Notes under the pieces: model-generated
What the model was told of the DNA's origin: nothing
The model's input: only the letters and a program-made list of their open reading frames with translations
Database searches by the model: none
Virus record (IMG/VR): IMGVR_UViG_3300009768_000006
Location: 38,552 to 102,551 of that record
DNA: 64,000 bases
Source: a virus
Lineage: Duplodnaviria; Caudoviricetes
Direction: 5' to 3' (one strand)
Program-made: the position numbers and the translations under genes
Part shown: piece after piece, positions 22,010 to 57,688 of the stretch
Layout of the letters: each line of letters starts with the position of its first letter
How positions within the stretch are numbered: the first letter of the stretch is position 1

Positions 22010-22495
22010 ATGATAATGAGTTTCTCGGTGGACCATACAAAATTAGTACCAGGACTCTATCTTTCAGAGAAGATAGGTAACATCTCTATCTGGGATATCA
22101 GGATGGTGGCTCCTTCATCTAAGAAGAAGCTCACAGGTCCTGTAGTTCACACTTTGGAGCACCTCCTAGCATTCTATATTAGATTGCATTTAGGAGAGAA
22201 GAAAGTCATAGGGTTGTATCCTATGGGATGCAAAACAGGATTCTATCTGGTTACTAAAAGAGCTAGTAAACATCAAGTATTGGAAGCGATGAAAGATGTC
22301 TTCCATATATTCTATACGAATGCTCAAGGGAGTTGGGAGGATAGAAATATTATAGCTATCCCTGGAGCTACAGAGAAAAGTTGTGGGAATCCTAACTACC
22401 ACAATCTTCCTGAAGCTCTGAAAGAAGCAGCTAAGTACTATGATAAGCTGTATATGCTGTACACTGTAGATATGGACTATGATAACTTAGTATAA
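22010..22495 (+). CDS. luxS: S-ribosylhomocysteine lyase LuxS
   Basis: SFSVDHTKL, DIR, HTLEH, PMGCKTGFY, IPGA...CGN..YH. Start reassigned to ATG 22010 (GGAGG RBS). Confidence 0.92.
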   Translation: MIMSFSVDHTKLVPGLYLSEKIGNISIWDIRMVAPSSKKKLTGPVVHTLEHLLAFYIRLHLGEKKVIGLYPMGCKTGFYLVTKRASKHQVLEAMKDVFHIFYTNAQGSWEDRNIIAIPGATEKSCGNPNYHNLPEALKEAAKYYDKLYMLYTVDMDYDNLV

Positions 22496-22510
22496 AGGAG
22501 AATATTACTA

Positions 22511-23560
22511 ATGAAGAGTGATAGGTTGGTACAAGGTAATTTTACAGGTCCTATAAGACCTACAGCTAAAATCATAAGTCATACTAGTTATCCTATCGGT
22601 ACTTTGTATACTGTATGGACAGGTACTAGATATGGTAGATGTCTGGATCCTAAGGTAGTTCAGGAGATTTATGATGGTAATTGGACAGAGGATCGCAGGG
22701 ACGAAGTTGAATTCATCTGTAAATGCTATCCTGAGTATACTGGTAGTTGGACTAGTAGGAAGACGCAGGCTTCCTCTGTGATTCTAGCGATTGCTCAGAA
22801 AGTCATAGAGTCAAATGTTCCTGCAGGAGAAGCGGTTCATCTTAATATCCAGATAGACAATGCTAGTGTTGCATGGCGTGAGCAGCTAGTCAGAGGTAGG
22901 ATATCTCAACAATTCTGGACTATGTCTACTAGGATCATGGACATGACGTCTATGGATGTGAACATGAATGATAGCATAAATCTTATCGGTGGTGAAGAAG
23001 CTGTAAAAATTTATGAGGATACTGTTCAGACTATCAGAGATGCTTATACTAAACTGATTGACCTAGGTATCCCTGTAGAGGATATCAGACTGCAACCTCA
23101 GAATCATGTTCATAGAGTGTACTGGATGGTTCCTCTACGTACGTTGGTAACTATTCTGAATAAACGTAGTGACTGGATCGCACAAGGATCTCTTTGGACT
23201 CCTATTGTATCCAGTATCATCTTAGCTCTAAGACAGATAGGGCTTTACAATGTTATAGCTCCGTTCATAGGGAAGCCTATGGTTGAGTTCTCAAAGGATC
23301 CTGAAGGGAACTATTTTGTTTCTAAATATATAATGGAAGCAGATAATGAAGATAGGTATAGTGGGAGAGATAAACTTCCATGTGATCCTCTATGGCTAGC
23401 ATACAGACATAAAACGATGCCAGCTCATACTAACATAGAGCATTATGATTATCTGAAGTCTGTCTACATGAATATTTGGTCTGATGAATATTTGGAAATA
23501 CTAGGATGGGATAGGGAGAATCCTGAGCAGTTAGGTTACTACGATAGACCTCAGGCATAA
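22511..23560 (+). CDS. Divergent ThyX-like (FAD-dependent thymidylate synthase family) protein
   Basis: REQLVRGR-X8-STR versus canonical RHR-X7-SxR; LGIPVEDIR resembles GxxxEDAR. Confidence 0.6.
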   Translation: MKSDRLVQGNFTGPIRPTAKIISHTSYPIGTLYTVWTGTRYGRCLDPKVVQEIYDGNWTEDRRDEVEFICKCYPEYTGSWTSRKTQASSVILAIAQKVIESNVPAGEAVHLNIQIDNASVAWREQLVRGRISQQFWTMSTRIMDMTSMDVNMNDSINLIGGEEAVKIYEDTVQTIRDAYTKLIDLGIPVEDIRLQPQNHVHRVYWMVPLRTLVTILNKRSDWIAQGSLWTPIVSSIILALRQIGLYNVIAPFIGKPMVEFSKDPEGNYFVSKYIMEADNEDRYSGRDKLPCDPLWLAYRHKTMPAHTNIEHYDYLKSVYMNIWSDEYLEILGWDRENPEQLGYYDRPQA

Positions 23561-23572
23561 CAAAAGATAGGA

Positions 23573-24196
23573 GTGTTCTTACAAATGAGCAAGTTTATAG
23601 GGATATCAGGTCCTACATGTACTTACAAAAGTACTATACATGCCTTATTGAAGAAAGTACTGCCTACGGATCCTAAAATAGTATACCTGGATGATATCCA
23701 TGATACTGTATGGAATAACTTGGTAAAGAGTGGTGTATTCTTTAACTATCAAGAACTGACTAGCGATAGAGATTACTTACTCATGTACATATCCAAGCTG
23801 ATAGATTACTATGCTAGTCAGATAGAGAAATACAAATACACTGATAACATTGTAATCATGGATGGGTGTATCGTAGACATATTAGTCTACAGTATGTTGA
23901 ATACCTGGTATCATTATCCAGTGAAAGAGTATACAGAGAAACTGATGGAAAAACTACTGAAGTATATGGATTACATAGACAATGTATTCATCACTATTCC
24001 TGATAAGAATAACGAAGAGAAACTTCAGTACAGCAGAAGAGCTCAACAAACTGCATTTAAGAAGAACAGGCCTCTAGAATGTTCATACTACAACATAGCT
24101 GGAGGTTTGCGTATATGTACGAAGCTTACATCAGACATAGTAAGTAATGCTAATATTATAAAAGAAAAAGTGCTAGAGTATGTAGCCTTACTGTGA
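23573..24196 (+). CDS. P-loop nucleoside/nucleotide kinase-like protein
   Basis: GISGPTCTYKST, IMDGCIVD. Confidence 0.55.
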   Translation: MFLQMSKFIGISGPTCTYKSTIHALLKKVLPTDPKIVYLDDIHDTVWNNLVKSGVFFNYQELTSDRDYLLMYISKLIDYYASQIEKYKYTDNIVIMDGCIVDILVYSMLNTWYHYPVKEYTEKLMEKLLKYMDYIDNVFITIPDKNNEEKLQYSRRAQQTAFKKNRPLECSYYNIAGGLRICTKLTSDIVSNANIIKEKVLEYVALL

Positions 24197-24208
24197 GCAT
24201 CATAACGT
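24185..24208 (+). promoter_or_regulatory. Phage promoter motif P8
   Basis: GCCTTACT-N11-AACGT. Confidence 0.7.
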
Positions 24209-24232
24209 TCTATATAATGGAGGTGATTACAC

Positions 24233-24958
24233 ATGCTCATAATAGATTCCATGGATAAACTACTAAACCACATAATAACAAATTGTTTTGAATATGACGG
24301 AATAGTAGTAGAAGGCTATGATTGTGTAGGTAAAGGTAGAGTACTAACTGATATAGCCTATGGATTAAATACTACTGTATATAGACCTGATTATACTGTA
24401 TGGACTCCTGAATTCTTAGGGAAAGAGGAAAGATGGAAGCTATCAGCTTACTATTTGGATATATGTTCTAAGCTTCATATTCCTAGAAAATCATTGAATA
24501 TCCAGGAATTCAGGAATAATCCTATAGACATATTTGATAGAGGAGTATTGTCAGGATATGTTTATAACCATGTAGATATAAGAAAATTCTACAAGGAGAT
24601 ATTAAGAGACTACAGACTACTTCATGTGATAGTGACCTGTGATGAATATAGTTTCTTCAAATACTTAGAATCTAGAAATAATAATATCACTGAGCAGCAG
24701 AAGCATGAGGAATTATTTAAATTAGCAGTTTACACTGAGTCATATGTTAATATTGCGAAGGAATTAGACCTATTAGCTTGTGTCTATATTAACAGTTATG
24801 ATCAATGCAAAGATAATTCTAATACTTGTGAAGGCTGTGGGCATTATAGCTATGGTGTATGTAAGAATCCTAGAAGTGATTATTATAACAATACAGTTAA
24901 TGATAATTTGAGCAGATGTAAAGTATCTAATGACGAGGAGATACAAGATGTACAATAA
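24233..24958 (+). CDS. dNMP kinase-like protein with C-terminal Cys cluster
   Basis: VVEGYDCVGK, IFDRG..SGYVY; CEGC...C...C tail. Confidence 0.6.
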   Translation: MLIIDSMDKLLNHIITNCFEYDGIVVEGYDCVGKGRVLTDIAYGLNTTVYRPDYTVWTPEFLGKEERWKLSAYYLDICSKLHIPRKSLNIQEFRNNPIDIFDRGVLSGYVYNHVDIRKFYKEILRDYRLLHVIVTCDEYSFFKYLESRNNNITEQQKHEELFKLAVYTESYVNIAKELDLLACVYINSYDQCKDNSNTCEGCGHYSYGVCKNPRSDYYNNTVNDNLSRCKVSNDEEIQDVQ

Positions 24959-27872
24959 ATGTGACCTTTGTAATTATAGTCAAGGAGCTTTTCATCAGAT
25001 TGAGCCTATAGGGAACTGCCAAGATGATGAGTGTGAGCTCCTGATTATAGGAGATTATCCTAAGGCTGAAGATGATGCTTCAGGATATCCATTGTCAAAT
25101 AGTAATCTTCAATTTTATTGGGAATTACTAAATGATCTTAAAGTAAAATATAAAGTAGTGTATGCTATGAAATGCATACCTATAGATTATAGAAATCGTA
25201 GGTATATGAAACCTACTATAAGTGACTTCGATACATGCATAAGGAATAACCTCGTAAATTATATAGTTAAAGTAGCTCCTGAGTGTATCCTGACATTAGG
25301 ACAGTTGGCTTTAGAAATTATGCTTGGCGAGGGTAAGAAGATAGGAGATTACAGAGAAAGAGCTGCTACGATTAGGATTCCTAATAAATCAGTGAAACTT
25401 ATCTCTACTTATAGCCCTTCTTATGCAGTTGATAATGAATCTACTATGTTCATGGATAGAGTTATAGAAGATACTGTGTATGCTAGCAGACATGCTATGG
25501 CTTACAGATATAAGGATACATATAAAACTATAACTTTAGATGCTATTGAATACTCTAAACTAGTAGATACTTTATTGTTAGATGATAGTGTAGAGTATAT
25601 TAGCTTCGATACAGAATCCAATGGACTTAATCCTCTAGTTCCTGGAGCAAAGATAACTTCTTTCTCTATATCCTATAACTATAATGTAGGTTACAATATA
25701 TTCTGCTATCATCCTGAGCTTGATATAAGTGATGAAGATAGACGTATTATTATAGAAGCATCAAAGAAGCTACTGACAAGTAAAAAAGTTATAGCTCATC
25801 ATATAAAGCATGAGTATCGATATGTTAAAGTATTGTGGGGATTCACTCCTAATCTAGTAGAAGATACAATGTATATGTCCTACTCATTGTTTATGTCAAA
25901 AGTAGGAGTAAGTAATGGATTAAAATATCTGGCTGGTAGATTCTTGCAGATGCCTCCGTGGGAAGAATACATAAATAGATATGTTGATCTATTCGATATG
26001 CTAAAGAAACTTAAGACTCTCGATGATGATAAAATAGCTAGATATAAAGATGTATACAATGACCTACAATTCACTAATGAAGAAGTTTATAAATGGTATA
26101 GTATATTGAAAGATCCTGATTATTATATTAGGCAAGTGGACTCTGAAGATGCTGATATATTCATGTGGATGATACCTGTGAGAGTATTAGAGAAATATGC
26201 TGGTATGGATGCTATAGCTCCTCTCATGCTTAAGGATGTCTTATTGCCTATGATAGAGTCTGATCCAGCTTTGTTAGAATCTTATAGGAGAGTAGTTAAA
26301 GGTGGAGGAGTATTTGCAAACATAGAGTTAAGAGGTATCAGGATCGAAGGTATAGATAGATGGACTACTATATATGAAGAGAAGATAGCTGAGCATTATG
26401 AGAAACTCAGATCTTATGATGAAGTATTAGCACTAGAATCTGAAGAAGGAGCTGTTTATAATCCTAATTCTAGTAAGCAGAATTCTAAGTTGTTCTTCGA
26501 TTATTTCAAGTTGCCTGTTATAGATAGTACATCATCTGGTAATCCTAGTACTAATGAAAATACATTGATAACTCTTATAAAGCAGTACAGAGAAAAATCA
26601 GATGAAAAGTCTGCTCGGGTATTGTCATTCCTGGAGAATTTCAGAGATTACAAGAAACTGTCTAAGATACATTCTACTTATTTCATAGGCCTTAGGAGAT
26701 TCATGCATGAGAATGATGCATTCGATGGTCATACTAACACTTATGTACCTAGTCCTAATGGAGTCCATGAGTTACATCTGCATCCACAATACTTGCTACA
26801 TGGGACTGAGACTGGTAGACTGTCTTCTAGTAATCCATCTATGCATGTAATACCTTTTAGATCAGATGTGAAGTCTATATTAGTTCCTCATGATCATAAA
26901 AGAGGAGGATTGTTCGTATCTGCTGACCAATCACAGCTAGAAATTAGAGTACTAGCATGTATCGTTGAGAAATTCTATGGAGATCCAAGTCTAGCTAATG
27001 CTTATAGAGAAGGTAGAGACATTCATCGATATAATGCGTCAAAGATTTTCTCTAAACCTGAAGAAGAAGTAGTAGATGCAGAACGTAGATTTGCTAAGAC
27101 TATCAGTTTCTCATTATTATACGGTAGTACAGAATATACTGTATCAGAGAATACAGGAAGGACTGTAGAGGAGTGCGCTCAACTTTTCAACCAGTTCTTT
27201 GAAGCTTTTCCGGGTGTAAAACTTTACATAGAAGATATGCATAAGTATGCATCTACTTATGGATGTGTCCGCACTCCATTTGGCAGGATAAGACATCTAG
27301 AGAACGCATTGCATCCTGAAGTACGTAGTAAGTATGAAGCATCTAAGAGACAAGCTCAGAATACTGTTATACAATCTACTGGTAGCGATATGTCACTCGT
27401 ATCTATAAACTACATGGATGATCATTTAATAGAGAAAAATTACAAATCAGCTGTAATAGCTTTCGTTCATGACTCCATAACTATAGATACTCATCCTGGA
27501 GAGTTATTTGAAATGATCGATCTACTCAAGTATTCTATGAAGACTCTGCTAGAGATGCTACCATGGGTAACTTGTCCGTTAGGAGTAGATATAGATATAA
27601 CAGATAATATGGCAGATCATTGTGGATTAAAGAGTATGGAGATCCTAGAAGATGGTTCTAGGATATTAGTATTAGATGGATATGACTATGAAGTAGCTGC
27701 AGTCATTAATGAAATGCGTGTAGCATATGAAATAATTAGCGAAGAATTATTATCAGAGAAGGAATTCTTCGAGAGTCCTGGAGATCTTGTAGCTAGAAAA
27801 GCAATTAATCTAGGATTCGATAATAAGACTTTTATAGAGCAGAAGAAGAAGATACACTTGAGAAAGAAATGA
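24948..27872 (+). CDS. polA: Family A DNA polymerase with N-terminal UDG family-4-like domain and 3'-5' exonuclease
   Basis: CDLC...IGDYP..EDD.SG.P (UDG4-like); SFDTES; TGRLSS; DQSQLEIR; AKTISFSLLYG; QSTGSD; VHDS. Confidence 0.92.
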   Translation: MYNKCDLCNYSQGAFHQIEPIGNCQDDECELLIIGDYPKAEDDASGYPLSNSNLQFYWELLNDLKVKYKVVYAMKCIPIDYRNRRYMKPTISDFDTCIRNNLVNYIVKVAPECILTLGQLALEIMLGEGKKIGDYRERAATIRIPNKSVKLISTYSPSYAVDNESTMFMDRVIEDTVYASRHAMAYRYKDTYKTITLDAIEYSKLVDTLLLDDSVEYISFDTESNGLNPLVPGAKITSFSISYNYNVGYNIFCYHPELDISDEDRRIIIEASKKLLTSKKVIAHHIKHEYRYVKVLWGFTPNLVEDTMYMSYSLFMSKVGVSNGLKYLAGRFLQMPPWEEYINRYVDLFDMLKKLKTLDDDKIARYKDVYNDLQFTNEEVYKWYSILKDPDYYIRQVDSEDADIFMWMIPVRVLEKYAGMDAIAPLMLKDVLLPMIESDPALLESYRRVVKGGGVFANIELRGIRIEGIDRWTTIYEEKIAEHYEKLRSYDEVLALESEEGAVYNPNSSKQNSKLFFDYFKLPVIDSTSSGNPSTNENTLITLIKQYREKSDEKSARVLSFLENFRDYKKLSKIHSTYFIGLRRFMHENDAFDGHTNTYVPSPNGVHELHLHPQYLLHGTETGRLSSSNPSMHVIPFRSDVKSILVPHDHKRGGLFVSADQSQLEIRVLACIVEKFYGDPSLANAYREGRDIHRYNASKIFSKPEEEVVDAERRFAKTISFSLLYGSTEYTVSENTGRTVEECAQLFNQFFEAFPGVKLYIEDMHKYASTYGCVRTPFGRIRHLENALHPEVRSKYEASKRQAQNTVIQSTGSDMSLVSINYMDDHLIEKNYKSAVIAFVHDSITIDTHPGELFEMIDLLKYSMKTLLEMLPWVTCPLGVDIDITDNMADHCGLKSMEILEDGSRILVLDGYDYEVAAVINEMRVAYEIISEELLSEKEFFESPGDLVARKAINLGFDNKTFIEQKKKIHLRKK

Positions 27873-27876
27873 TTGT

Positions 27877-28386
27877 ATGGATATTAGAGTAGAGGATCAT
27901 TTCAAGTTGGTGCATCATGTACTGCATAAGAAGTTCTACTACAAGTCTAAAGAAGACTATGAGGATTTATTTCAAGTAGGATGTATAGGATTACTGAAAG
28001 CTACCAGGACTTTTGATGAATCTAAAGCTATTAAGTTTTCTACGTATGCAGCTATGTGTATATATAATGAACTCCTCTGTTATCTAAGACCTAGCAAGAA
28101 TGAGATAAAGTGTGTATCTATATATGCAGATATATCAGAAGATGGATCTAACAATCTACTAGATTCTATAGCTGATACCAGTGATGATATAGTATATTCA
28201 TATGTATGTGATGGATTCCTAGAAATCTATAATAAACTATCTCCTCGGGATCAATCTATAATACATATGAGACTACTTGATAATTATACTAATAGAGAGA
28301 TAAGTAAGAAATATAATCTTTCACATACTACTGTTTCTAGAGTGCTAGCAGCTTTCAAGAAAGCTATGATGGACTATGTTAGTTAA
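27877..28386 (+). CDS. RNA polymerase sigma factor, sporulation (SigF/G/E/K)-like
   Basis: EDLFQVGCIGLLKA..FD...KFSTYA; region 4 TNREIS...SHTTVSR. Confidence 0.88.
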   Translation: MDIRVEDHFKLVHHVLHKKFYYKSKEDYEDLFQVGCIGLLKATRTFDESKAIKFSTYAAMCIYNELLCYLRPSKNEIKCVSIYADISEDGSNNLLDSIADTSDDIVYSYVCDGFLEIYNKLSPRDQSIIHMRLLDNYTNREISKKYNLSHTTVSRVLAAFKKAMMDYVS

Positions 28387-28389
28387 TTA

Positions 28390-28413
28390 GGCTAACTCTT
28401 ATATATCAAACGT
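28390..28413 (+). promoter_or_regulatory. Phage promoter motif P9
   Basis: GGCTAACT-N11-AACGT. Confidence 0.75.
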
Positions 28414-28590
28414 TTTTTTACTTTGAAAAGGAGCAAGATTAGACTTGACTCTTCAAAGAAATTATCAGGAGGCTACTAGAATGTACGAATTTGTTCATAA
28501 ACTATATTCGATCTTCAATTTTGTGAAGGATGTAATACCAGCTTTAGTTAAACCTGCCGCCCTGCCCGTGAGTGGAGAAAGGAGATTGAT

Positions 28591-28803
28591 ATGACAAGCC
28601 CCATGATATCACAGCTAAACAAGACAAGCCCCTGCACACCCACCTGCCCCGACCGCACGTCCACATGTCACGCGACCTGCCCCAAACAAAAAGCGTGGGA
28701 GGCGTACAAAAAGCCGATTTACAAGGCGAGGGAACTGGCGAACGAGATTTGCACCAGCACGGAGCATTGGGAGAACTACGCGCGGAAGGTGCGGATAGGA
28801 TGA
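28591..28803 (+). CDS. Small Cys-rich hypothetical (prophage-type)
   Basis: PC...CPDR...CHATC; strong RBS. Confidence 0.65.
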   Translation: MTSPMISQLNKTSPCTPTCPDRTSTCHATCPKQKAWEAYKKPIYKARELANEICTSTEHWENYARKVRIG

Positions 28804-28817
28804 AAGGAGATTGACAC

Positions 28818-28994
28818 ATGAAAACAACCAAAGACCTGATCGCGGAGGCGGAGCAGCTACAGGAGCGCGAGAAATACCCGTGTTACGGGTACGAGTGCTA
28901 CGAACGCGGTAATTACCATGTAGGGTGTAGCGCTTGCCCGTATTTCAAGCGACACCTGCCCGAGCCGCCCGAACAGGAAGGAGAACCGAAGTGA
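28818..28994 (+). CDS. Small Cys-rich hypothetical (MKTTKDLIAEAE...)
   Basis: Hand-translated 58 aa; GAAAGGAG RBS. Confidence 0.55.
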   Translation: MKTTKDLIAEAEQLQEREKYPCYGYECYERGNYHVGCSACPYFKRHLPEPPEQEGEPK

Positions 28995-29272
28995 GCCGAC
29001 TTATTGATGCAGACAATCTGCTTAGTAAATTCAATATAGACGATATGACAAATATAAACGGTTGTGTCCCAATGAGCATTGCAAGGCGGACAATAGAATC
29101 CGCCCCGACCGTCGAAGCTGCGCCGGTGGTGCATGGAAGGTGGATATACCAGAGATTAGTCAGCGCAGACCCATACAAGTGTAGCGTCTGCGGCGATACC
29201 GTCAACGTATACGCTTACTACTATTGCCCCAGCTGCGGCGCAATCATGGACGGAAAGGAGGGAAACCAGTGA
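28991..29272 (+). CDS. Zn-ribbon protein of the RLIDAD...APTV...HGRW...CPxCGA prophage family
   Basis: GTG start overlapping upstream stop; characteristic motifs. Confidence 0.75.
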   Translation: MSRLIDADNLLSKFNIDDMTNINGCVPMSIARRTIESAPTVEAAPVVHGRWIYQRLVSADPYKCSVCGDTVNVYAYYYCPSCGAIMDGKEGNQ

Positions 29273-29430
29273 AACGCTTCCTGCTATGACTAGTCTTTGA
29301 CAGCGGCATAAAGCTTGGGCGGATGGCTCCGTATCTATTTGGGTTGGCGATACGCAGTCGCCCACACAGGGTCATTGAGATTAATTGTGGCGCTCGGGCT
29401 AAAGGAAAGGAGGAAAACTGGGATGCCTGA
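29269..29430 (+). pseudogene. Small ORF with in-frame TGA at codon 7
   Basis: MKRFLL*LVFDSGIKLGRMAPYLFGLAIRSRP...; GGAGG RBS; TGA at 29287. Confidence 0.5.
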
Positions 29431-29608
29431 AAGCGTGACCGTCGCATGCCCCTACTGCGGACGTGTAACGAATTCAGTTTTGGAAAATTTATCCAAAATA
29501 AAAGTTACTAAGTGCATCCCATGCGGTAGGCTGTTTGTCACGAAAGCTACGATTGTAACAACCGTTATCGCTGTCGGCCTCAAAATCGAAGGCGAGGAAC
29601 ATAAGTAA
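29423..29608 (+). CDS. Zn-ribbon hypothetical (MPESVTVACPYCG...)
   Basis: CPYC/CIPC; AGGAGG RBS. Confidence 0.6.
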   Translation: MPESVTVACPYCGRVTNSVLENLSKIKVTKCIPCGRLFVTKATIVTTVIAVGLKIEGEEHK

Positions 29609-29643
29609 GTCCGCTAGTCAGTCAGCAGAGAAAGGAGCAAAAA

Positions 29644-29871: not shown

Positions 29872-29882
29872 GGAGATATAAT

Positions 29883-30083: not shown

Positions 30084-30110
30084 TATCATAGTATACAAAG
30101 GAGAATAATT

Positions 30111-30500: not shown

Positions 30501-30502
30501 TT

Positions 30503-49472: not shown

Positions 49473-49527
49473 CTATTAGGTTGAAAGAGGAATTAACTCT
49501 TAATTAACTTGAGGAGGATTTAAGAAA

Positions 49528-50436
49528 ATGGAAAGAATGACTGAAAGAGTCCCTATGTGGGAGAGGATTGGCACTTCTTCTGAGGATCACAGCTTTGATG
49601 CTCTGTTCAACAAAGCAGGTCTCAACTACAAGGTTGAGGTGAGAGATCTTCTCACAAGCAATGGCGTAGAGGTCAGGAAGGTCCCTGATAGGTTCGCTAC
49701 TGTCAGATCCGATACGGGCGATGTGCTCGGTATCGTAAGTGATCGGTACAAGGTTTGCCAGAATGAAGATGCTCTGGATTTCGTCAAGTTCATCGATGGA
49801 GTGGATCTCATCAGAGCAGGTATCTACAATGGAGGTTCCGGCTGCTACATGATCGGTAAGCTCCCTGAAGTCACTGTCCTCGGAGATAAAATCAGGCCTA
49901 ACATCATCTGGCAGAACACTCATGATGGATCTGGGAGCATCAGAAGTACTGTCTGCATGCTGCGTCTCGTTTGCCAGAATCAGTTCGTGCAAAGCTTCAA
50001 GAATTCGCCTGTGACTATCAAGTTCTCTCACATGGGCGACTTGAATGAAAAACTTCTCGCTGCTAAGCAGCAACTCGTCAGTGTCTATGACTACATCAGC
50101 GTGTATGAGGAAGAAGCTACTAAGTATGCTAGGAGCAAGATCACTCCTGAGAAATTCAACAAGATTCTCCAGTCCATGTTCAATATCAAAGAAGATAACT
50201 CGCCCAGGCTGAACCAGAGGCTCGAAACTGAGAAATCCATGTTTATCACAGCCTATGAACAAGAGGATAACCAGAACTTCAAAGGTACAAAGTGGGGAGT
50301 CATCAACGCTTTCAGTGACTTCATTACTCACGGAGCTCCTTCCCGTAAGTCTGAGAACTGGGATGAGAACAGATTCCTCTGGAGTCTGAATCCTAGCATC
50401 ATGGACAACTTCGTAGAGCTTATCGAAGCTGCTTAA
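49528..50436 (+). CDS. DUF932/DUF945-family protein
   Basis: AGLNYKV, ATVRSDTG.VLGIVSDRYKVCQN, NTHDGSG, RLVCQN, GTKWGVINA. Confidence 0.85.
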   Translation: MERMTERVPMWERIGTSSEDHSFDALFNKAGLNYKVEVRDLLTSNGVEVRKVPDRFATVRSDTGDVLGIVSDRYKVCQNEDALDFVKFIDGVDLIRAGIYNGGSGCYMIGKLPEVTVLGDKIRPNIIWQNTHDGSGSIRSTVCMLRLVCQNQFVQSFKNSPVTIKFSHMGDLNEKLLAAKQQLVSVYDYISVYEEEATKYARSKITPEKFNKILQSMFNIKEDNSPRLNQRLETEKSMFITAYEQEDNQNFKGTKWGVINAFSDFITHGAPSRKSENWDENRFLWSLNPSIMDNFVELIEAA

Positions 50437-50443
50437 AATCAGC

Positions 50444-50476
50444 AGGAGGCTGAGATAACCTCTTAGCCTCCTTATT
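50444..50476 (+). terminator. Hairpin/terminator before tRNA-Val
   Basis: AGGAGGCTGAGA...TCTTAGCCTCCT. Confidence 0.65.
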
Positions 50477-50478
50477 CT

Positions 50479-50554
50479 AGTCCGTTAGCTCAGTTGGGAG
50501 AGCGCTTGCCTTACAAGCAAGAGGTCCAGGGTTCGAGCCCCTGACGGACTACCA
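50479..50554 (+). tRNA. tRNA-Val(TAC)
   Basis: CTTGC-CTTACAA-GCAAG, CCA. Confidence 0.93.
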
Positions 50555-50574
50555 TAATATATAAGGAGGGTTCT

Positions 50575-51123
50575 ATGCATAAATTTCTATATGAGAGTGA
50601 CTATAATGATGATCCTGAAATAGTACATCAAGAATATACTAGTGCTAAGACCAGTATCAATAGTAGAAAATTACCTGCTATATTCTCGAAGATAGATTTC
50701 GAAGAAGGATCTATAAATTTGGATATAGGAGGAGGTAAGTATGATAATGTAGCAAATTGGATGAAACGTACTTATAATGCTACTAACTTGGTATATGATC
50801 CTTACAATAGATCTGATGAACATAATAGTAGAGTAATAAATATAGTCAGGGAACATGGAGGAGCAGACACAGTTACCTGCTCTAATGTATTGAATGTCAT
50901 AAAAGAAGAAGAAGCTAGGCTTGCTGTATTAAGAAACTGTAGAAAGTATCTTAAGCCTGGAGGTACTTGCTATATCACAGTCTATGAGAATGATAGAGAT
51001 GGAGTAGGTAAAGTTACTACTTCAGGATATCAGCTCAATAGAAGATTAGCGGATTATGTAGATGAAGTTAGCGAAATCTTCAGATCAGTTACTATACGTA
51101 ATAATATGATAATAGCTAGGTAA
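50575..51123 (+). CDS. Class I SAM-dependent methyltransferase
   Basis: NLDIGGGK, YDPY, SNVLNVI, LKPGG. Confidence 0.85.
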   Translation: MHKFLYESDYNDDPEIVHQEYTSAKTSINSRKLPAIFSKIDFEEGSINLDIGGGKYDNVANWMKRTYNATNLVYDPYNRSDEHNSRVINIVREHGGADTVTCSNVLNVIKEEEARLAVLRNCRKYLKPGGTCYITVYENDRDGVGKVTTSGYQLNRRLADYVDEVSEIFRSVTIRNNMIIAR

Positions 51124-51134
51124 GGAGAATCATC

Positions 51135-51449
51135 ATGGATAAAGAGAATATACTAAGACTATGTCTACAATCCTATGGTATATACTCACAGTCTATCATG
51201 GCTTTAGAAGAAATGAGTGAATTAGCTAAGGAGCTTTGCAAGACTTTCAGAGTACCTGACGATAAGGTATTTGAGCTAGGCTTAGCTGATAAGATAAGAG
51301 AAGAAATAGCTGATGTCAAAATCATGATGTATCAATTAGAACTATATTATGGTGATACTAGTGAATGGGAAGAGAAGAAATTAGCTAGACTAGAGGCTAT
51401 TATGAACAGAGATGCTAAGAATGGTAGTAATACATTCGTCATAAAATAG
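51135..51449 (+). CDS. MazG-like nucleotide pyrophosphohydrolase
   Basis: EEMSEL..EL...EEIADV. Confidence 0.75.
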   Translation: MDKENILRLCLQSYGIYSQSIMALEEMSELAKELCKTFRVPDDKVFELGLADKIREEIADVKIMMYQLELYYGDTSEWEEKKLARLEAIMNRDAKNGSNTFVIK

Positions 51450-51472
51450 CCTAACTCATGAGGATGTAACGT
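51449..51472 (+). promoter_or_regulatory. Phage promoter motif P18
   Basis: GCCTAACT-N11-AACGT, 10 nt upstream of tRNA-Ser. Confidence 0.85.
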
Positions 51473-51482
51473 TTATTATGTT

Positions 51483-51570
51483 GGAGAGTTGTCCGAGTGG
51501 TTTATGGAGTTGGTCTTGAAAATCAACGATCCTCCAGGATCCCAGAGTTCAAATCTCTGACTCTCCGCCA
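51483..51570 (+). tRNA. tRNA-Ser(TGA)
   Basis: GGAGAGT/ACTCTCC, TTGGT-CTTGAAA-ATCAA, variable arm, GCCA. Confidence 0.92.
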
Positions 51571-51910
51571 GTGCTTAGCGATAGGTAGTAGTCTAAGCTA
51601 GTATGGAACAAGAGGCTGTAAACTGATGAAGTTTACGAGATCTCCAAGATAAGTTTATGATAAGAATTAACTTACTCTTGCAAGTACATTAATTATACTA
51701 GTTATAATAAAGCTCGTACAAGTAATCCTTAGTATCTTATCTACTATGTCAACGTAGGTCTAAACGTTGAGAAAGGTTATGGAGTACGAAGGTTGTGGAG
51801 AGTCTAAGTATTATAGGAGAGGGGTTAGTTGATCTGTTGTGTCGGAGGGTAGGAGTACTAGCAATTCATGTTACTGAGTACAAGTATCCTGTAATGCTTA
51901 TTCTCTCCAT
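51571..51910 (+). ncRNA. Structured ncRNA candidate (about 340 nt)
   Basis: No ORF; long stems with G-U pairs directly after tRNA-Ser. Confidence 0.55.
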
Positions 51911-51934
51911 GGATCTTAAAAAAGGAGTTTACTT

Positions 51935-52240
51935 ATGAAAGACTATCAGGTCAGAGTGAATTGCACTGAAACTACTACTAGGGATGTCATAGTGAACGTA
52001 GATCCTATGGAATTCCTTGATCAGCTAATAACTTCTGTAGTTCAGCTTCCTAGAGACACTATCATAGATGATAAAGGGAATTATGTAATTCCTAATAAAG
52101 ATATCTCTCAGAGATTGATCATCAACAATTACATAACTCTCAATGTCAAACTCAGTGAAGAAGAAATCACTGTATTCAAGGATATCTTAAAGCTTAAGGA
52201 TTCTTTAAACAAGCTACTTAATGGTCCATTAGCTCAGTAG
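51935..52240 (+). CDS. Hypothetical protein (3' end overlaps tRNA-Arg)
   Basis: AGGAG RBS. Confidence 0.6.
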   Translation: MKDYQVRVNCTETTTRDVIVNVDPMEFLDQLITSVVQLPRDTIIDDKGNYVIPNKDISQRLIINNYITLNVKLSEEEITVFKDILKLKDSLNKLLNGPLAQ

Positions 52241-52299
52241 GATAGAGCAATAGCCTTCTAAGCTATGAGTCTGAGGTTCGATTCCTCAATGGATCACCA
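52223..52299 (+). tRNA. tRNA-Arg(TCT)
   Basis: ATAGC-CTTCTAA-GCTAT, CCA. Confidence 0.92.
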
Positions 52300-52326
52300 A
52301 CACTAGTAACGGAGGATCTAACTAAT

Positions 52327-52572
52327 ATGAATTACTTGCATAGAGTTGAAGCAGCTATAGTAGAGAAAATATATGAGCAGGGAGGTGTATGGTGTAAAAT
52401 TACTACTTTAAAGACTAACGTTGATATAACTATATACAGATATGGATTCACAGCATATGAGAATTTGGCTAGAGATAAATTCGCTGTAATAGAATCAGGA
52501 GTTACTAAGCTAGAGGAAGCATCTCTACAAGATGTTGCCAAGTATATAATAATCAGGAATAAATCTAAGTGA
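52327..52572 (+). CDS. Hypothetical protein
   Basis: GGAGG RBS. Confidence 0.6.
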   Translation: MNYLHRVEAAIVEKIYEQGGVWCKITTLKTNVDITIYRYGFTAYENLARDKFAVIESGVTKLEEASLQDVAKYIIIRNKSK

Positions 52573-52573
52573 T

Positions 52574-52647
52574 GCTAATGTAGTATAAAGGTAGTATACT
52601 AGTCTTCCAAATTAGTGGTGTGGGTTCGATTCCCATCATTAGCTCCA
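52574..52647 (+). tRNA. tRNA-Gly(TCC)
   Basis: GCTAATG/CATTAGC, CTAGT-CTTCCAA-ATTAG, TCCA. Confidence 0.88.
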
Positions 52648-52830
52648 ATTAACTAAGGAGGATTACATAATGGAAGAGAAACTCTATATCTATAGGATCT
52701 CAGAAACTTTTCCTCTTGAAATTGAATTGATGGATAAACGTACAATAGTTTATGAGAACTCGCAATATTACTACTGTAAAGTTAATGGAGTTAATGGGTC
52801 AATCTATCTAGAGTCTCATCCAAAAACTAT

Positions 52831-53070
52831 GTGAACAATCCAGAACTAGGATTGCATTCAGTATTTACAGAATCCTTCTTGAGAGAACATGATTATAATA
52901 TAGAAGCATTATTAAGGGATAAGCTGAAGGATTCTTTGAGATGGAAAATTAATCATGATCAATTAAATATCGAAGAGCTTGAAGATAGACTGAAGAAAGC
53001 TAGAGAATCATTGAAATCACACTCAGATCAACTACAAGTCTTGACTGATAATACTGAAGAATCTACGTAA
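52831..53070 (+). CDS. Hypothetical coiled-coil protein (possibly 3' part of a frameshifted gene starting at 52670)
   Basis: ORF; upstream 54-codon ORF overlaps at ATGTGA. Confidence 0.45.
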   Translation: MNNPELGLHSVFTESFLREHDYNIEALLRDKLKDSLRWKINHDQLNIEELEDRLKKARESLKSHSDQLQVLTDNTEEST

Positions 53071-53075
53071 ATCCT

Positions 53076-53151
53076 GCTCCGTTAGCTCAATTGGTAGAGC
53101 ATCGGTTTTGTACTCCGAGGGTTGCGAATTCAAATTTTGCACGGAGCTCCA
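53076..53151 (+). tRNA. tRNA-Thr(TGT)
   Basis: GCTCCGT/ACGGAGC, anticodon loop TTTGTAC, slightly degenerate stems. Confidence 0.8.
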
Positions 53152-53157
53152 ATATAA

Positions 53158-53181
53158 GGCTAACTTTAGACATTAGAACGT
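53158..53181 (+). promoter_or_regulatory. Phage promoter motif P19
   Basis: GGCTAACT-N11-AACGT. Confidence 0.8.
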
Positions 53182-53202
53182 TACTTATTGTGTAACCAAG
53201 AA

Positions 53203-53288
53203 GCTACTATGGCGGAATTGGCAGACGCGATGGTCTTAGAAGCCATTGGAGAATATCCGTGTCGGTTCGAGTCCGACTAGTAGCACCA
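53203..53288 (+). tRNA. tRNA-Leu(TAG)
   Basis: GCTACTA/TAGTAGC, ATGGT-CTTAGAA-GCCAT, variable arm, CCA. Confidence 0.92.
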
Positions 53289-53310
53289 AAAGAATAACTA
53301 GGAGTAATTT

Positions 53311-53784
53311 ATGAATAAAAGAATTATTGAATGCAAATTCTTAACAACCTCGACTCCTTGGGAGTATTCATATGAATCTGGTAAATACGTTATTAAGACT
53401 AAATCTGGATTTTATATAGGTGTAGTAGAATCGAAGCTATCAGCACAATTACTCATAGATAGTGTAAATAATTATGAAAAACTGCTTGATGACTACAATA
53501 AGATAGACTCTAAGTTAGAGTATTACAAGAAACTTTTAGCAAAGTACAGTCAATCTAAGAATAATTCGGATTGGCATTATGTGAGTGACTGTGCTCCTAT
53601 TATACTAGTTCATGATTACTGTAGTAAATTACTAGAATTATCAGATGGTAATTCTACTGTTCTGGGATATTATACTAAAGATAGAGTTTATATCCCTTAT
53701 GACTCTACTATCACTAGCCTATATACTATAGATAAAGTAGTAAAGTGGAGATACTATGAGGAGGCAATAGATTATGATTATTAA
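53311..53784 (+). CDS. Hypothetical protein
   Basis: ORF with RBS. Confidence 0.65.
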   Translation: MNKRIIECKFLTTSTPWEYSYESGKYVIKTKSGFYIGVVESKLSAQLLIDSVNNYEKLLDDYNKIDSKLEYYKKLLAKYSQSKNNSDWHYVSDCAPIILVHDYCSKLLELSDGNSTVLGYYTKDRVYIPYDSTITSLYTIDKVVKWRYYEEAIDYDY

Positions 53785-54166
53785 GTTGTATGGAAAAGAG
53801 TATAAAGTAAATCTAACAGTTGCATCCTATAGTCAGTATGGCAATTTAGCTTTGCAGCTTATTCATACTGATGATGATGGATATTTAGAACCTTTCGGAT
53901 TCATCACTAAAAATCTCTCTAACGTAGATAAATTCCAAGCATTCTTAGATGTTAACAATATGCCTGGTATAGAAGTATTTGTGCAGAAATACAAACTAGG
54001 AGTACCTAAAGGAACTATGGCTAGTTCTGGCTATTGTATGTATCCTCTTTATGAGTTCGATGAGGCTGTACTAAGAAGCTATGATAACTATGGTGTTGAT
54101 AAATATTTGAAGGTTAATGATTATAAGAAAGGTGTTCATAATGAGAATAAGAGGAACCGCAGCTAG
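53774..54166 (+). CDS. DUF4313-like protein
   Basis: LALQL...EPFG.IT.NL...AFLDVNN...SGYC.YPLYEF. Confidence 0.7.
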   Translation: MIIKLYGKEYKVNLTVASYSQYGNLALQLIHTDDDGYLEPFGFITKNLSNVDKFQAFLDVNNMPGIEVFVQKYKLGVPKGTMASSGYCMYPLYEFDEAVLRSYDNYGVDKYLKVNDYKKGVHNENKRNRS

Positions 54167-54317
54167 TTATGTAATAGGTACAGTTGCATTATTAGTAGTC
54201 GGTAAGATAATATCGGACGGTAACTTCCTTTCAAGTTATATTGGTAGGATCATATCTGGATTACTTATAGTAGCAGGATTGATATTATTTATCTATCTGT
54301 ATATTAAATATATGTAA
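54141..54317 (+). CDS. Small two-TM membrane protein
   Basis: Hydrophobic helices. Confidence 0.5.
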   Translation: MRIRGTAASYVIGTVALLVVGKIISDGNFLSSYIGRIISGLLIVAGLILFIYLYIKYM

Positions 54318-54328
54318 GAGGAGTAACT

Positions 54329-54598
54329 ATGGCTAAATCAGTAATTCTAATCAGTACACCTAATTGTGGTAAGTGCAAAATGCTCTATCAAAGTCTCAAG
54401 TCTTATTGCCAACGTAAAGATATACCTATGGAAAAGATAGACTATGAGAACCTTCCAGAGAATATCCAGGAAGATGTAGTGAAGTCTAATCATAAATCTG
54501 TACCTATCTTGTATCTGATTACAGATGAGTACAATTATGTATTTGGAGGAGATAATGCATTTCTAGATCTGAAACAATTCTTGATGGATAATAAATAA
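54329..54598 (+). CDS. Glutaredoxin/thioredoxin-like protein
   Basis: CGKC, SVP. Confidence 0.8.
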   Translation: MAKSVILISTPNCGKCKMLYQSLKSYCQRKDIPMEKIDYENLPENIQEDVVKSNHKSVPILYLITDEYNYVFGGDNAFLDLKQFLMDNK

Positions 54599-54613
54599 TA
54601 TAAGGAGTAATAT

Positions 54614-55741
54614 ATGTATCAATACATAACGTCAGAATCAGTATGTGCAGGTCATCCTGATAAGTTGTGCGATAAGATAGCAGATAGCATATTGGATGAA
54701 GCTATTCGTATAGATAAGTATGCTAGGATGGCTGTAGAAGCTACCATAAAAGATAACTTCATATTTATCTATGGTGAGTCTAGTGTAGATGGTATAGACT
54801 ATGGAGGTATCGCGAAGAAAGTTATCGAAGATGTAGGTTATGATGAAGATTATGAAGTATTAATCAAAGTATCAAAACAATCCAACGAGATAGCTAATGC
54901 AGTGATTAATCCTTCATCTGGTAAATTAGGCGCTGGGGATCAAGGTATAGTGTATGGATATGCTACAGATGAAACTCCTAACTATATGCCGATGCCTATA
55001 TATCTTGCTCATGCTATAGCTAAAAAACTAGACAATCCAGACTATAGATATATATTAGGTCCTGATGGTAAGACTCAAGTAACTGTAGCTTACAACAATA
55101 AATATAAACCTGCCGATGTGCATAATATATTAGTTTCTAAGCAACATAGAGAAAATGTTAATATCAAGGAGCTTAGAGACTTTCTTCAATACAAATTGAA
55201 CTTTAAATCATTAATGGATGAGCTGAATCTTTATTCCTATTTTACTAATGATTTAGAGTATCAAGGATATGCTCCTGCCTATATCATCAATCCATCTGGT
55301 AGCTTTGTAGTAGGAGGATCATTTGGAGATAGTGGTACTACAGGTAGGAAGATAGTAGTAGATACATATGGAGGAGTAGGCAGAGTAGGAGGTGGCGCTC
55401 TAAGCAGTAAGGATCCTACTAAAGTAGATAGATCAGGAGCTTATTACGCTAGATATGTAGCTAAGAATATAGTGTACAATAAGCTAGCAACTAGATGTGA
55501 GATACAAGTTGCTTATGGTATAGGATTATCTGAACCTATCTCTTTCCATTTAGATTGCTATGGTACTAATACTGAGCCTATTAATAATATATATAGTCTA
55601 ATAGGTGATAAATTCGATTTTAGTCCATACAATATCATAGAAGAACTAGATTTGCGTAGACCTATCTATGCAGATACAGCTGTATATGGTCACTATGGTG
55701 ATCCTAAATATCCTTGGGAGCAAGTCAAAATAATTACTTAG
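54614..55741 (+). CDS. metK: S-adenosylmethionine synthetase
   Basis: TSESV..GHPDK, GAGDQG, PDGKTQVT, GRKIVVDTYGG, GGGALSSKDPTKVDRSG. Confidence 0.96.
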   Translation: MYQYITSESVCAGHPDKLCDKIADSILDEAIRIDKYARMAVEATIKDNFIFIYGESSVDGIDYGGIAKKVIEDVGYDEDYEVLIKVSKQSNEIANAVINPSSGKLGAGDQGIVYGYATDETPNYMPMPIYLAHAIAKKLDNPDYRYILGPDGKTQVTVAYNNKYKPADVHNILVSKQHRENVNIKELRDFLQYKLNFKSLMDELNLYSYFTNDLEYQGYAPAYIINPSGSFVVGGSFGDSGTTGRKIVVDTYGGVGRVGGGALSSKDPTKVDRSGAYYARYVAKNIVYNKLATRCEIQVAYGIGLSEPISFHLDCYGTNTEPINNIYSLIGDKFDFSPYNIIEELDLRRPIYADTAVYGHYGDPKYPWEQVKIIT

Positions 55742-55764
55742 GCTAACTTCAGAGGATGTAACGT
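55741..55764 (+). promoter_or_regulatory. Phage promoter motif P20
   Basis: GGCTAACT-N11-AACGT. Confidence 0.8.
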
Positions 55765-55796
55765 TACTATATGTATAAGAAAGGAGTGTTAAGAAT

Positions 55797-56672
55797 ATGA
55801 AGCTAACTAGAGACGTTATCCAGAAATTGATCATATTAGCGGGGTTGCAAGAGAAAGGATTACTTACGATTTCTCAAGTTACTAATGTGGACGGAACTGT
55901 GCATGATTACAGCACAAGTCCTGAGATTATCAGTAATGCAGAGAAGTGTAATTTCTCACTAAGAGGATCTTACTCAGGATCTCCAGTATTCAGTACTATC
56001 TACATTGTAAAAAATTATGATGTACAAGTGCTGAATCTTAATGTTAAAATCGATGAACCTCATGGTGATTTCCTGGATATCAAGGAGCTTCTGAATGAAG
56101 GATATTCTAGCTTCTATGAAGATGGGAAAGTATTCATAAAAGGAGTAGTAGAATTCTCAGGTAACAAATTCACTAATGAGGATACTGCTAACATCGATGT
56201 ATTAGGTAGCCAAATAGTAAGTTATATAAAGGCTATCGATTATTATTCTAATCTACTGTCTCAGACTCGTAAGGTCATCAAGGAGATGAAACCTCCAGTT
56301 GAGAAGTCAGCTGATGAACCTAAAGATGATACGCCGGTAGAGGAAGAAGTAATCAAAGAAACTATTCAATGTGTCAGTTATCAGTACAAGCACGATATCA
56401 ATTATGGGGATTATACCTCAATATTACGAGCTAATAGCTTAGAAGCACTTCAGCAGTATGCTACTGATTTGCGATTGACTATCCAACGTGCTCGTACTAC
56501 ATCAAGAGCTTTGCAGTATGCAATGGATATGATTCTCCAGTATTCTGTCAGCTTGAATGAGGGTCATTATCCCTCACTTCCTCTTCCTAGAAGTAAGAAT
56601 AAAACCTATCAAGTAATAAATACATACGAAGGTAGAGAACTTCGCCGAATCGTATGGAATATAAAGGAGTAG
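55797..56672 (+). CDS. Hypothetical protein
   Basis: AAGGAG RBS after P20. Confidence 0.7.
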   Translation: MKLTRDVIQKLIILAGLQEKGLLTISQVTNVDGTVHDYSTSPEIISNAEKCNFSLRGSYSGSPVFSTIYIVKNYDVQVLNLNVKIDEPHGDFLDIKELLNEGYSSFYEDGKVFIKGVVEFSGNKFTNEDTANIDVLGSQIVSYIKAIDYYSNLLSQTRKVIKEMKPPVEKSADEPKDDTPVEEEVIKETIQCVSYQYKHDINYGDYTSILRANSLEALQQYATDLRLTIQRARTTSRALQYAMDMILQYSVSLNEGHYPSLPLPRSKNKTYQVINTYEGRELRRIVWNIKE

Positions 56673-56677
56673 TGAAT

Positions 56678-56965
56678 ATGGGTGACATTGTAAACGAAGT
56701 AAGAAAGCATCGTATCAACATGATCGTGAAGCTTCTGGAGACTGAGATAGAAGGTTTGAAGAAGCAAGGTTATGAAGTAGAGTTCGGTAAAATCGGTCAG
56801 AAGTCTACGTATGCTCTGATCAAGAATAAGGAAGGTGAAGAGTATGTAGGTTATACTTATGTAGCCAACCTGAACAACAGTGATCCTGACTATGGCAACT
56901 ATAAAGCTCTTCTTCAGGCTACTGCCAGGAAGTCATTCGAAGAAGATAAAGTAAAGTCCAAGTAA
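56678..56965 (+). CDS. Hypothetical protein
   Basis: AAGGAG RBS. Confidence 0.6.
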   Translation: MGDIVNEVRKHRINMIVKLLETEIEGLKKQGYEVEFGKIGQKSTYALIKNKEGEEYVGYTYVANLNNSDPDYGNYKALLQATARKSFEEDKVKSK

Positions 56966-56971
56966 TTTATG

Positions 56972-57003
56972 AAGAGAGTAGGCTAAATACCTACTCTCTT
57001 TTA
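56972..57003 (+). terminator. Intrinsic terminator
   Basis: AAGAGAGTAGG...CCTACTCTCTT followed by T-run. Confidence 0.85.
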
Positions 57004-57082
57004 CTACTTATTCTTTTTACCACGGTAAGCTGAATACAAGAAAAATGACTTATAGCCTATAGAGCAAGCACAGGAGGAAAGT

Positions 57083-57688
57083 ATGATAGGTATCGTAGTA
57101 GCACAAGAAGAAGAAGCTAGAGATCTTATAGAAGTCTTAAATCTTCATCATAACTGGCAGAACCTGCATTACGGTGATAATATAATACTCAGTATATCAG
57201 GAGTAGGTATGTTGAATGCAGCTATGGCTACAAGATTTCTATTAGATGAAGATGATCATATGGATAAACTAATCAACATAGGTACATGTGGTGGTAGATC
57301 TATTCAGCCTAACACTATCGTATCACCTAGGATCATCCACAATGCTGATATGGATTTAACCGCTTTCGGACATGACCTATATTACAATCCAGGTATGAGT
57401 AACAATATAATGATCACAGGATATGAAGGATTATTGGATGTACCTTGTTATACTACATCTAAGTTCAATGATAAAATAATATCAAAGTATGAACAATATA
57501 TCATAGATATGGAATTATATGGAATAGCATTTGCTTGTAAATCTTATCATCCTTATATAAACTTATCAGCTATCAAACTAGTTACTGATAATAGTGCTGA
57601 TACTAACGATGCTAAGTATACTTATGAGGAGAATTTAGCAAATAACTACAAGGACTTTGTTAAGAAAATAGCAAGCATGATTTCCTAG
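57083..57688 (+). CDS. mtnN: MTA/SAH nucleosidase (Pfs/MtnN)
   Basis: IGIVVA.EEE, SGVGMLNAA, INIGTCGG, D.DLTAFG, DME, K.VTDNSA. Confidence 0.85.
   Translation: MIGIVVAQEEEARDLIEVLNLHHNWQNLHYGDNIILSISGVGMLNAAMATRFLLDEDDHMDKLINIGTCGGRSIQPNTIVSPRIIHNADMDLTAFGHDLYYNPGMSNNIMITGYEGLLDVPCYTTSKFNDKIISKYEQYIIDMELYGIAFACKSYHPYINLSAIKLVTDNSADTNDAKYTYEENLANNYKDFVKKIASMIS

Follow-up and report, generated by a model that had tools for sequence, protein, structure and literature searches.

The stretch of DNA analysed here (the window, 64,000 nucleotides) covers bases 38,552-102,551 of the 102,551-bp IMG/VR record IMGVR_UViG_3300009768_000006, a phage of the Caudoviricetes; coordinates given below for this phage are positions in the window. 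Its plus strand carries three genes whose predicted products would act on S-adenosylmethionine (SAM) or on what is left after its use: luxS (22010-22495), metK (54614-55741) and a gene (57083-57688) that a preliminary description of the same DNA had called pfs. All three open reading frames (ORFs) were recovered where that description had placed them. The first 95 bases of the record are identical to the last 95, and this terminal repeat indicates that the phage genome is complete. Its GC content is 35%, and nearly all of its genes lie on the plus strand.

LuxS, MetK and a compact nucleosidase

The product of metK (375 aa) is, judged by its sequence, unambiguously a methionine adenosyltransferase. 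It exceeds the equivalog cutoff of TIGR01034 (409 bits versus 309), its N-terminal, central and C-terminal domains each score above the respective Pfam cutoff, and it matches phrog_1569 with an E value of 1.5e-117. Relatives with 42-45% identity are found in 138 phage records.

The luxS gene lies between the primase gene and a ThyX-like gene, and encodes a homologue of S-ribosylhomocysteine lyase of 161 aa. The protein scores 122 bits against PF02664 (cutoff 27), covering profile positions 2-147 of 154, and a search of 5.8 billion proteins gave a closest homologue of about 41% identity, the best matches coming from Clostridia. The HTLEH and catalytic PMGC motifs are intact, as had been noted before, and the metal-ligand Cys is present as well. 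In a phmmer alignment to Bacillus subtilis LuxS (1J98) the residues Ser6, His11, Arg39, His54, Glu57, His58, Cys84 and Cys126 are all identical. In this numbering we take His54, His58 and Cys126 to be the metal ligands, Glu57 and Cys84 the catalytic residues, and Ser6, His11 and Arg39 the substrate contacts. Across an alignment of 29 homologous sequences, the phage protein keeps the consensus residue in all 30 columns that are invariant or at least 90% conserved. Compared with 1J98 it has an extra insert of 8-10 residues. Its structural model has a mean predicted local distance difference test (pLDDT) score of 88, and LuxS structures account for each of its 18 PDB matches at E <= 0.001, with template modelling (TM) scores of 0.68-0.75. 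The ATG at 22010 follows a GGAGG ribosome-binding site at a distance of 8 nt, which speaks for this start codon. Thus, the phage LuxS looks intact, belongs to the LuxS family and has its predicted fold, and is presumably active.

The third protein (201 aa) matches PF01048 (PNP_UDP_1) with 49 bits against a cutoff of 25, and all 19 of its sequence matches in PDB are nucleosidases acting on 5'-methylthioadenosine (MTA) and S-adenosylhomocysteine (SAH), the MTAN enzymes. A HMMER scan of 1.84 billion representatives placed it in a family of proteins of about 200-220 aa, to which it is 33-39% identical. The profile of this subfamily aligns with Escherichia coli Mtn (b0159) over 189 columns (hhalign probability 99.8%, E 1e-29). 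In this alignment Glu12, Phe151, Met173, Glu174 and Asp197 of the E. coli enzyme, which we take to be the catalytic residues (Glu12, Glu174, Asp197) together with Met173 and Phe151, correspond to E11, F128, M143, E144 and D169 of the phage protein. Among 36 aligned subfamily members E11, M143 and E144 are invariant, and F128 and D169 nearly so. The differences from Mtn are a length shorter by some 30 residues and the replacement of Arg193 by Lys (invariant in the subfamily), Ser196 by Thr and Met9 by Gln. The structural model is of high quality (pLDDT 93.9) and the listed Foldseek matches are all MTAN or futalosine hydrolases; the best is Helicobacter pylori MTAN with S-ribosylhomocysteine and adenine bound (TM 0.86), and futalosine hydrolases score nearly as well. 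The gene is preceded by an AGGAGG ribosome-binding site. Sequence and predicted fold thus identify an adenosyl-nucleoside hydrolase of the MTAN type, and are compatible with a preference for SAH, MTA or 5'-deoxyadenosine. The earlier label pfs stands in so far as the protein is MTAN-like, with the catalytic residues kept, and overstates the case otherwise, the protein missing every MTAN equivalog cutoff and being a member of a short and divergent subfamily.

Upstream of the nucleosidase gene, between it and two orphan ORFs, lies a terminator-like hairpin on the plus strand (56971-57001; 12 bp followed by a U-rich tract, -17.3 kcal/mol, z = -5.6), which is absent from the list returned by a simple terminator scan. 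Given this hairpin, the nucleosidase gene may be transcribed separately.

Promoter motifs, composition and origin

We conclude that luxS, metK and the nucleosidase gene are native to the phage, because the genome is complete, a phage motif precedes luxS and heads the stretches with the other two, their codon usage falls within the range of the genome and CpG is depleted in them. The promoter-like motif, CTAACT-N11-AACGT, occurs in 17 exact copies, all on the plus strand, where 0.05 would be expected. One copy (21951-21972) stands directly before luxS and overlaps the end of the primase gene, in agreement with the promoter proposed there previously. A second plus-strand copy (53160-53181) heads a stretch with a tRNA (53203-53285), small ORFs, a redoxin gene and metK, while a third (55743-55764, also plus) begins 2 nt past the metK stop codon and heads the stretch towards the nucleosidase gene. 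A sigma-70-family factor with Sigma70_r2 and r4 domains, encoded by the phage at 27877-28386, is a candidate reader of the motif. With the genome's own long ORFs as reference, metK has a codon adaptation value of 0.718 and the nucleosidase gene one of 0.710, the genome mean being 0.69 +/- 0.066, while luxS is somewhat atypical (0.608; GC content at third codon positions 0.395), as is its neighbour thyX. In all three genes the CpG depletion matches that of the genome.

That the contig might be chimeric or contaminated and the trio derive from the host had been raised from the outset. The phage collection shows that such contamination is common: those of its LuxS matches in 'Bacteriophage sp.' records that we inspected turned out to be bacterial chromosome, with phosphotransferase system (PTS), two-component and sugar genes nearby. 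For the present phage, however, we consider this explanation highly improbable. The genome is complete with its terminal repeats, the three genes are on the same strand and tightly packed among phage replication and ribonucleotide reductase genes, and the phage-specific motif precedes luxS and heads the stretches with metK and the nucleosidase gene. Moreover, the best cellular match is as distant as stated above for LuxS and only 38-39% identical for the nucleosidase, and the shared CpG depletion argues in the same direction. A search for Rfam elements near the three genes returned no riboswitch or other element, 8 tRNAs being the sole finds, and megablast of the two regions holding the trio against the phage collection gave zero matches.

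The trio in other phages

The preliminary description was not aware of the trio having been characterised in a phage; that the combination should be new to phages is not borne out. Kieft et al. 2021 ('Virus-associated organosulfur metabolism', bioRxiv 10.1101/2021.01.05.425418) named metK, mtnN and luxS as auxiliary genes of gut viruses; their text describes luxS with mtnN on single genomes and metK with dcm, and their Table S1 places all three genes on a single rumen viral contig of 340 kb, where mtnN is adjacent to luxS. In IMG/VR we identified 52 contigs with LuxS relatives, 50 of which were searched whole for PNP_UDP_1 and MetK. A PNP_UDP_1 protein was present in 18 of these and a MetK above the family cutoff in 27, all three families occurring together in 14. 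Every one of these 14 contigs carries the genes as a tight cassette in the order metK-mtnN-luxS or mtnN-luxS-metK, and their LuxS sequences fall into two clades. The flanks were checked in two contigs, one for each gene order, and consist of phage genes in both. The first (L043) is a complete 89-kb genome with terminal repeats, where metK-mtnN-luxS, with 4-nt overlaps at both the metK-mtnN and the mtnN-luxS junctions, directly follows a GH108 endolysin gene among dUTPase and ParB genes. The second (L023), a provirus, has mtnN-luxS-metK after an endolysin gene, with mtnN and luxS overlapping by 14 nt and metK starting 9 nt past luxS; a reverse transcriptase of the diversity-generating type (phrog_1423, positions 3810-5276) lies a few kb from this cassette. 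All four near-complete cassette genomes have N6/N4 DNA methyltransferase (PF01555) matches. C5 methyltransferase matches occur as well in 6 of the 14 records with a cassette, two of them being near-complete genomes.

Thus, the IMG/VR cassettes (e.g., IMGVR_UViG_3300045988_108377) and the rumen contig combine the same three enzyme families in one phage genome as the phage studied here. They differ from it in several respects. The IMG/VR cassettes are contiguous, overlapping, next to an endolysin gene and accompanied by DNA methyltransferases, whereas here the genes are dispersed and a canonical DNA methyltransferase is missing. Furthermore, the cassette MTANs are canonical proteins of 230-260 aa with 120-190 bits on PF01048, unlike the divergent 201-aa nucleosidase, which is about 22% identical to the L043 enzyme; the L043 and L023 enzymes are 39% identical to each other. 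The phage thus adds a dispersed and divergent member to a class of SAM-cycle auxiliary genes that was already recognised in phages. In the literature we found no biochemical work on a phage LuxS or a phage MTAN.

In the LuxS tree the phage sequence sits on its own long branch beside that of a 9.9-kb viral fragment (L014, positions 3572-9908; IMGVR_UViG_3300002406_000338), outside both cassette clades. Forcing all trio-linked LuxS sequences into one clade, a group named after the tree was seen, costs 43 log-likelihood units (approximately unbiased test, p-AU 0.038), and a single clade is thus weakly rejected. The fragment holds the only tree sister of the phage LuxS. Its luxS adjoins ORFs of 847 aa and 1764 aa, the latter weakly similar to PolA of the phage analysed here, so that there too luxS lies among replication genes. 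Scanned against IMG/VR as single queries, neither the phage LuxS nor the nucleosidase found a close relative. A 7-sequence alignment of the nucleosidase subfamily retrieved two viral loci from the same database, and a nucleosidase pattern gave zero matches in 185,579 species genomes, which given the narrowness of the pattern is weak evidence of absence. In a 98-kb viral contig (L006, positions 6606-10507; IMGVR_UViG_3300025168_013179) a gene for a GroEL-like chaperonin and one for a phosphoribosyltransferase are directly followed by one for a short MTAN-like nucleosidase. The latter two look like an adenine-salvage pair, and LuxS and MetK are absent from this record. The corresponding idea of adenine salvage as the primary role in our phage was dropped, a phosphoribosyltransferase not being found anywhere in its genome.

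The inspected records of the phage collection include MT835487.1 (L007) and MT835476.1 (L008), both labelled 'Bacteriophage sp.', which were rejected as phage on account of the cellular genes around luxS-mtnN. The neighbours are PTS, GH1, two-component and AzlC genes in L007, and a major facilitator superfamily transporter gene in L008. The LuxS-matching Staphylococcus, Listeria and Enterococcus 'phage' records, unverified and unannotated, are probably host contigs too.

The closest relative that we found, IMGVR_UViG_3300029305_001653, is syntenic with the phage (PolA 51%, NrdD 75% and ThyX-like protein 62% identical). In this relative the primase and ThyX-like genes directly adjoin each other, luxS being missing from their junction, LuxS is absent from the whole record, and metK and the nucleosidase gene are absent from the redoxin-to-nrdD stretch. 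The relative also lacks the family 4 glycosyltransferase (GT4) and the methyltransferase of a sugar operon described below, but retains the HD hydrolase, the second methyltransferase, NrdD, ThyX and PolA. In place of the GT4/PIG-L/methyltransferase genes it has about 6 kb of other content (L069, positions 8600-14850), the HD hydrolase homologue being on the opposite strand. The phage therefore has both the trio and the core of the sugar/methyl operon, and the relative has neither, which is one comparative data point. The same record encodes a protein with a Spo0A C-terminal domain (L068, positions 8100-8507; 105 bits), which suggests possible interference with sporulation. Together with an endolysin of the GH25/SH3 type that profile searches found in the phage genome itself, this Spo0A-like gene points to a spore-forming member of the Bacillota as host.

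SAM users and the proposed role of the trio

The order of genes around metK is NrdH-like redoxin, metK, two orphan ORFs, nucleosidase, nrdD and, after about 2 kb with four ORFs, nrdG, all on the plus strand. The small glutaredoxin/NrdH-like redoxin (54329-54598), immediately 5' of metK, is recognised by weak Pfam Glrx-like and thioredoxin matches and by phrog_22 (thioredoxin domain), and has a retained homologue in the syntenic relative. The orphan ORFs (55797-56965; 291 aa and 103 aa) have zero matches in Pfam, PHROG, PDB and the ESM Atlas, and a homologue of the shorter one is present in the relative. The anaerobic ribonucleotide reductase gene nrdD (58089-59936; PF13597, 535 bits) is separated from the nucleosidase gene by a 400-nt gap (57689-58088) with neither a credible ORF nor a Rfam match. 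The true nrdD start probably lies downstream of the listed GTG, since the homologue in the relative aligns from residue 20 onwards only. The activase of NrdD, the radical-SAM protein NrdG, is encoded at 61935-62393 (Fer4_12, 26 bits; a weak Radical_SAM match; phrog_626), and no further radical-SAM enzyme was found in the whole genome. Activation of NrdD requires SAM, which NrdG uses up, yielding 5'-deoxyadenosine.

Two class-I SAM-dependent methyltransferases complete the set of SAM users noted previously and confirmed here. One (12125-12814, plus strand) is the last gene of an operon encoding an HD hydrolase, a GT4 glycosyltransferase, a PIG-L protein and this methyltransferase; it matches Methyltransf_23, 12 and 31, all under cutoff, and phrog_4752. 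It is the candidate for the main SAM consumer. The other (50575-51123, plus strand; 182 aa) scores 38 bits against Methyltransf_23 (cutoff 27) and is 63% identical to its homologue in the relative. With metK and the nucleosidase gene in the redoxin-NrdD-NrdG module and two such methyltransferases in the genome, the context fits SAM use. A protein with a nucleoside 2-deoxyribosyltransferase fold (17092-17964) and a MazG-like NTP pyrophosphohydrolase (51135-51449) are also encoded; these nucleotide-pool genes may belong to a modification pathway.

The explanation that we consider the best, and hold to be probable, is that the three phage enzymes keep SAM-dependent reactions running in the infected cell. 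MetK would make SAM from methionine and ATP, the phage methyltransferases would turn it into SAH and NrdG into 5'-deoxyadenosine. Both compounds are product inhibitors of the enzymes that form them. The MTAN-like nucleosidase would strip adenine from SAH and 5'-deoxyadenosine, and LuxS would split the resulting S-ribosylhomocysteine into homocysteine and 4,5-dihydroxy-2,3-pentanedione (DPD), the precursor of autoinducer-2 (AI-2). The homocysteine would be re-methylated by the host or lost, the phage itself leaving the cycle unclosed, so that the module would mainly supply SAM and relieve product inhibition; DPD would be an unavoidable by-product, released as AI-2. SAM synthesis combined with clearance of SAH and 5'-deoxyadenosine to sustain methylation is thus the best-supported reading, and we infer enzyme activity, substrate range and flux. 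By our estimate, if the methyltransferase of the sugar operon acts once per thymine, the 66,440 A:T pairs of the genome and a burst of about 100 would require SAM molecules in the millions, far more than the pool of a typical cell and hence many turnovers of it.

Compared with the bacterial activated methyl cycle and its Pfs/LuxS branch, as in E. coli Mtn and B. subtilis LuxS, the phage enzymes have the same folds and catalytic residues, and MetK is an equivalog. The phage cycle is open, however. As the preliminary description had noted for the window, a methionine synthase is missing, and this now extends to the whole 102,551-bp genome, where PF02574 (homocysteine methyltransferase of the MetH/MmuM type) has no match, the MetE family PF01717 not having been searched separately. 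Phage T3 SAM lyase (SAMase; PMC8406200) is likewise a phage enzyme acting on the host SAM pool. Its direction is the opposite, since it destroys SAM and blocks MetK, whereas here SAM would be supplied and its by-products removed; there is no sequence relation between the two.

Several observations weigh against this explanation. The activity of all three proteins is predicted from family, fold and conserved residues. LuxS falls below the cutoff in all ten NCBIfam equivalog models (best NF002604, 107.6 bits versus 158) because of its divergent sequence, and the nucleosidase does so in all nine (NF004079, 47.5 versus 169 bits; TIGR01704, 35.4 versus 73.8 bits). The nucleosidase subfamily is moreover uncharacterised, and its homocysteine-side pocket is not one that a sequence allows to be judged. 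NrdG would use about one SAM per NrdD activated, and would thus not by itself account for MetK. A genome-scale methylation, suggested at first, found no confirmation: no Dam, Dcm, N4/N6 or C5 DNA methyltransferase was found in the whole genome, and a high methylation flux therefore rests on an unproven modification pathway. With 32 kb between luxS and metK, the trio is dispersed, neither contiguous nor translationally coupled, and given also the terminator-like hairpin upstream of the nucleosidase gene, co-regulation as a single unit is conjectural. For the co-variation with the sugar operon we have one comparison, with a relative whose record is linear and maybe incomplete.

The dispersed arrangement might instead reflect separate accessory acquisitions, with MetK serving general SAM needs, the nucleosidase mainly clearing 5'-deoxyadenosine for NrdG or salvaging adenine for nucleotide synthesis, and LuxS being a passenger. 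The genes are indeed spread over 35 kb, a promoter motif of its own and somewhat atypical codon use set luxS apart, and the nucleosidase gene, behind its hairpin, is directly 5' of nrdD. In addition, MetK alone is common in phages (the 138 records mentioned above), and the short nucleosidase next to a phosphoribosyltransferase in the contig without LuxS and MetK fits adenine salvage. Nevertheless, we know of no LuxS substrate other than the product of SAH nucleosidase; tight trio cassettes exist in at least two other phage groups, all three genes are jointly missing from the closest relative, and a phosphoribosyltransferase is missing from the phage genome. Overall we judge separate acquisition to be unlikely. 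Counter-defence, in which MetK and its partners keep SAM available for self-methylation against restriction or offset a SAM-lowering response of the host, is far less probable still. In its favour, metK and dcm of gut phages have been interpreted in the literature as guarding against restriction-modification (PMC11283538), and the cassette phages do carry DNA methyltransferases. The present genome lacks a canonical one, though, an interaction with defence is conjectural here, and the proposal overlaps with SAM supply and by-product clearance rather than replacing it.

In an alternative scenario, signalling itself would have been selected, AI-2 made by the phage LuxS being released from infected cells and altering neighbours, for example in biofilm formation, defence expression or prophage induction. 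That an active LuxS necessarily gives DPD and hence AI-2 is established chemistry, luxS has its own promoter motif inside the replication gene block, and an AI-2 signalling role for viral luxS has previously been raised in metagenome papers (PMC13644194). Several points speak against selection for the signal. In those parts of the genome that were annotated we recognised neither an AI-2 receptor or transporter nor a quorum-sensing regulator, and the likely host group commonly makes AI-2 itself, the best LuxS matches being from Clostridia. Furthermore, AI-2 output would be limited by the SAH flux and not by LuxS alone, and the translational coupling of luxS to mtnN and metK in other phages points to metabolism. 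We therefore regard selection for signalling as distinctly improbable, if marginally less so than counter-defence. AI-2 would arise as a by-product irrespective of any selection for it, and a role in signalling is speculative.

Returning to SAM supply and by-product clearance, a more specific and more tentative proposal can be made, which we rate as possible and no better than that. In this phage lineage the trio and the GT4/PIG-L/methyltransferase operon may have been acquired jointly, the trio serving to sustain a stoichiometric N-methylation of an amino sugar linked to DNA. This would be a hypermodification and not a Dam- or Dcm-type methylation, and would use a compact MTAN subfamily whose members have so far come exclusively from metagenomic and viral contigs. 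That the trio varies together with the sugar/methyl operon provides a concrete way into this pathway, and a possible coupling to hypermodification is among the most useful leads of this analysis, as is the compact MTAN subfamily itself, a small and well-modelled enzyme. The AI-2 angle would matter for signalling in gut communities, and is still speculation. Provided that its enzymes are active, the module illustrates how a phage whose DNA modification has a high demand for methyl groups keeps SAH from poisoning the phage methyltransferases. More broadly, the presence of the trio in at least three arrangements among unrelated phages is good comparative evidence that SAH clearance, and not only SAM supply, limits phage methylation.

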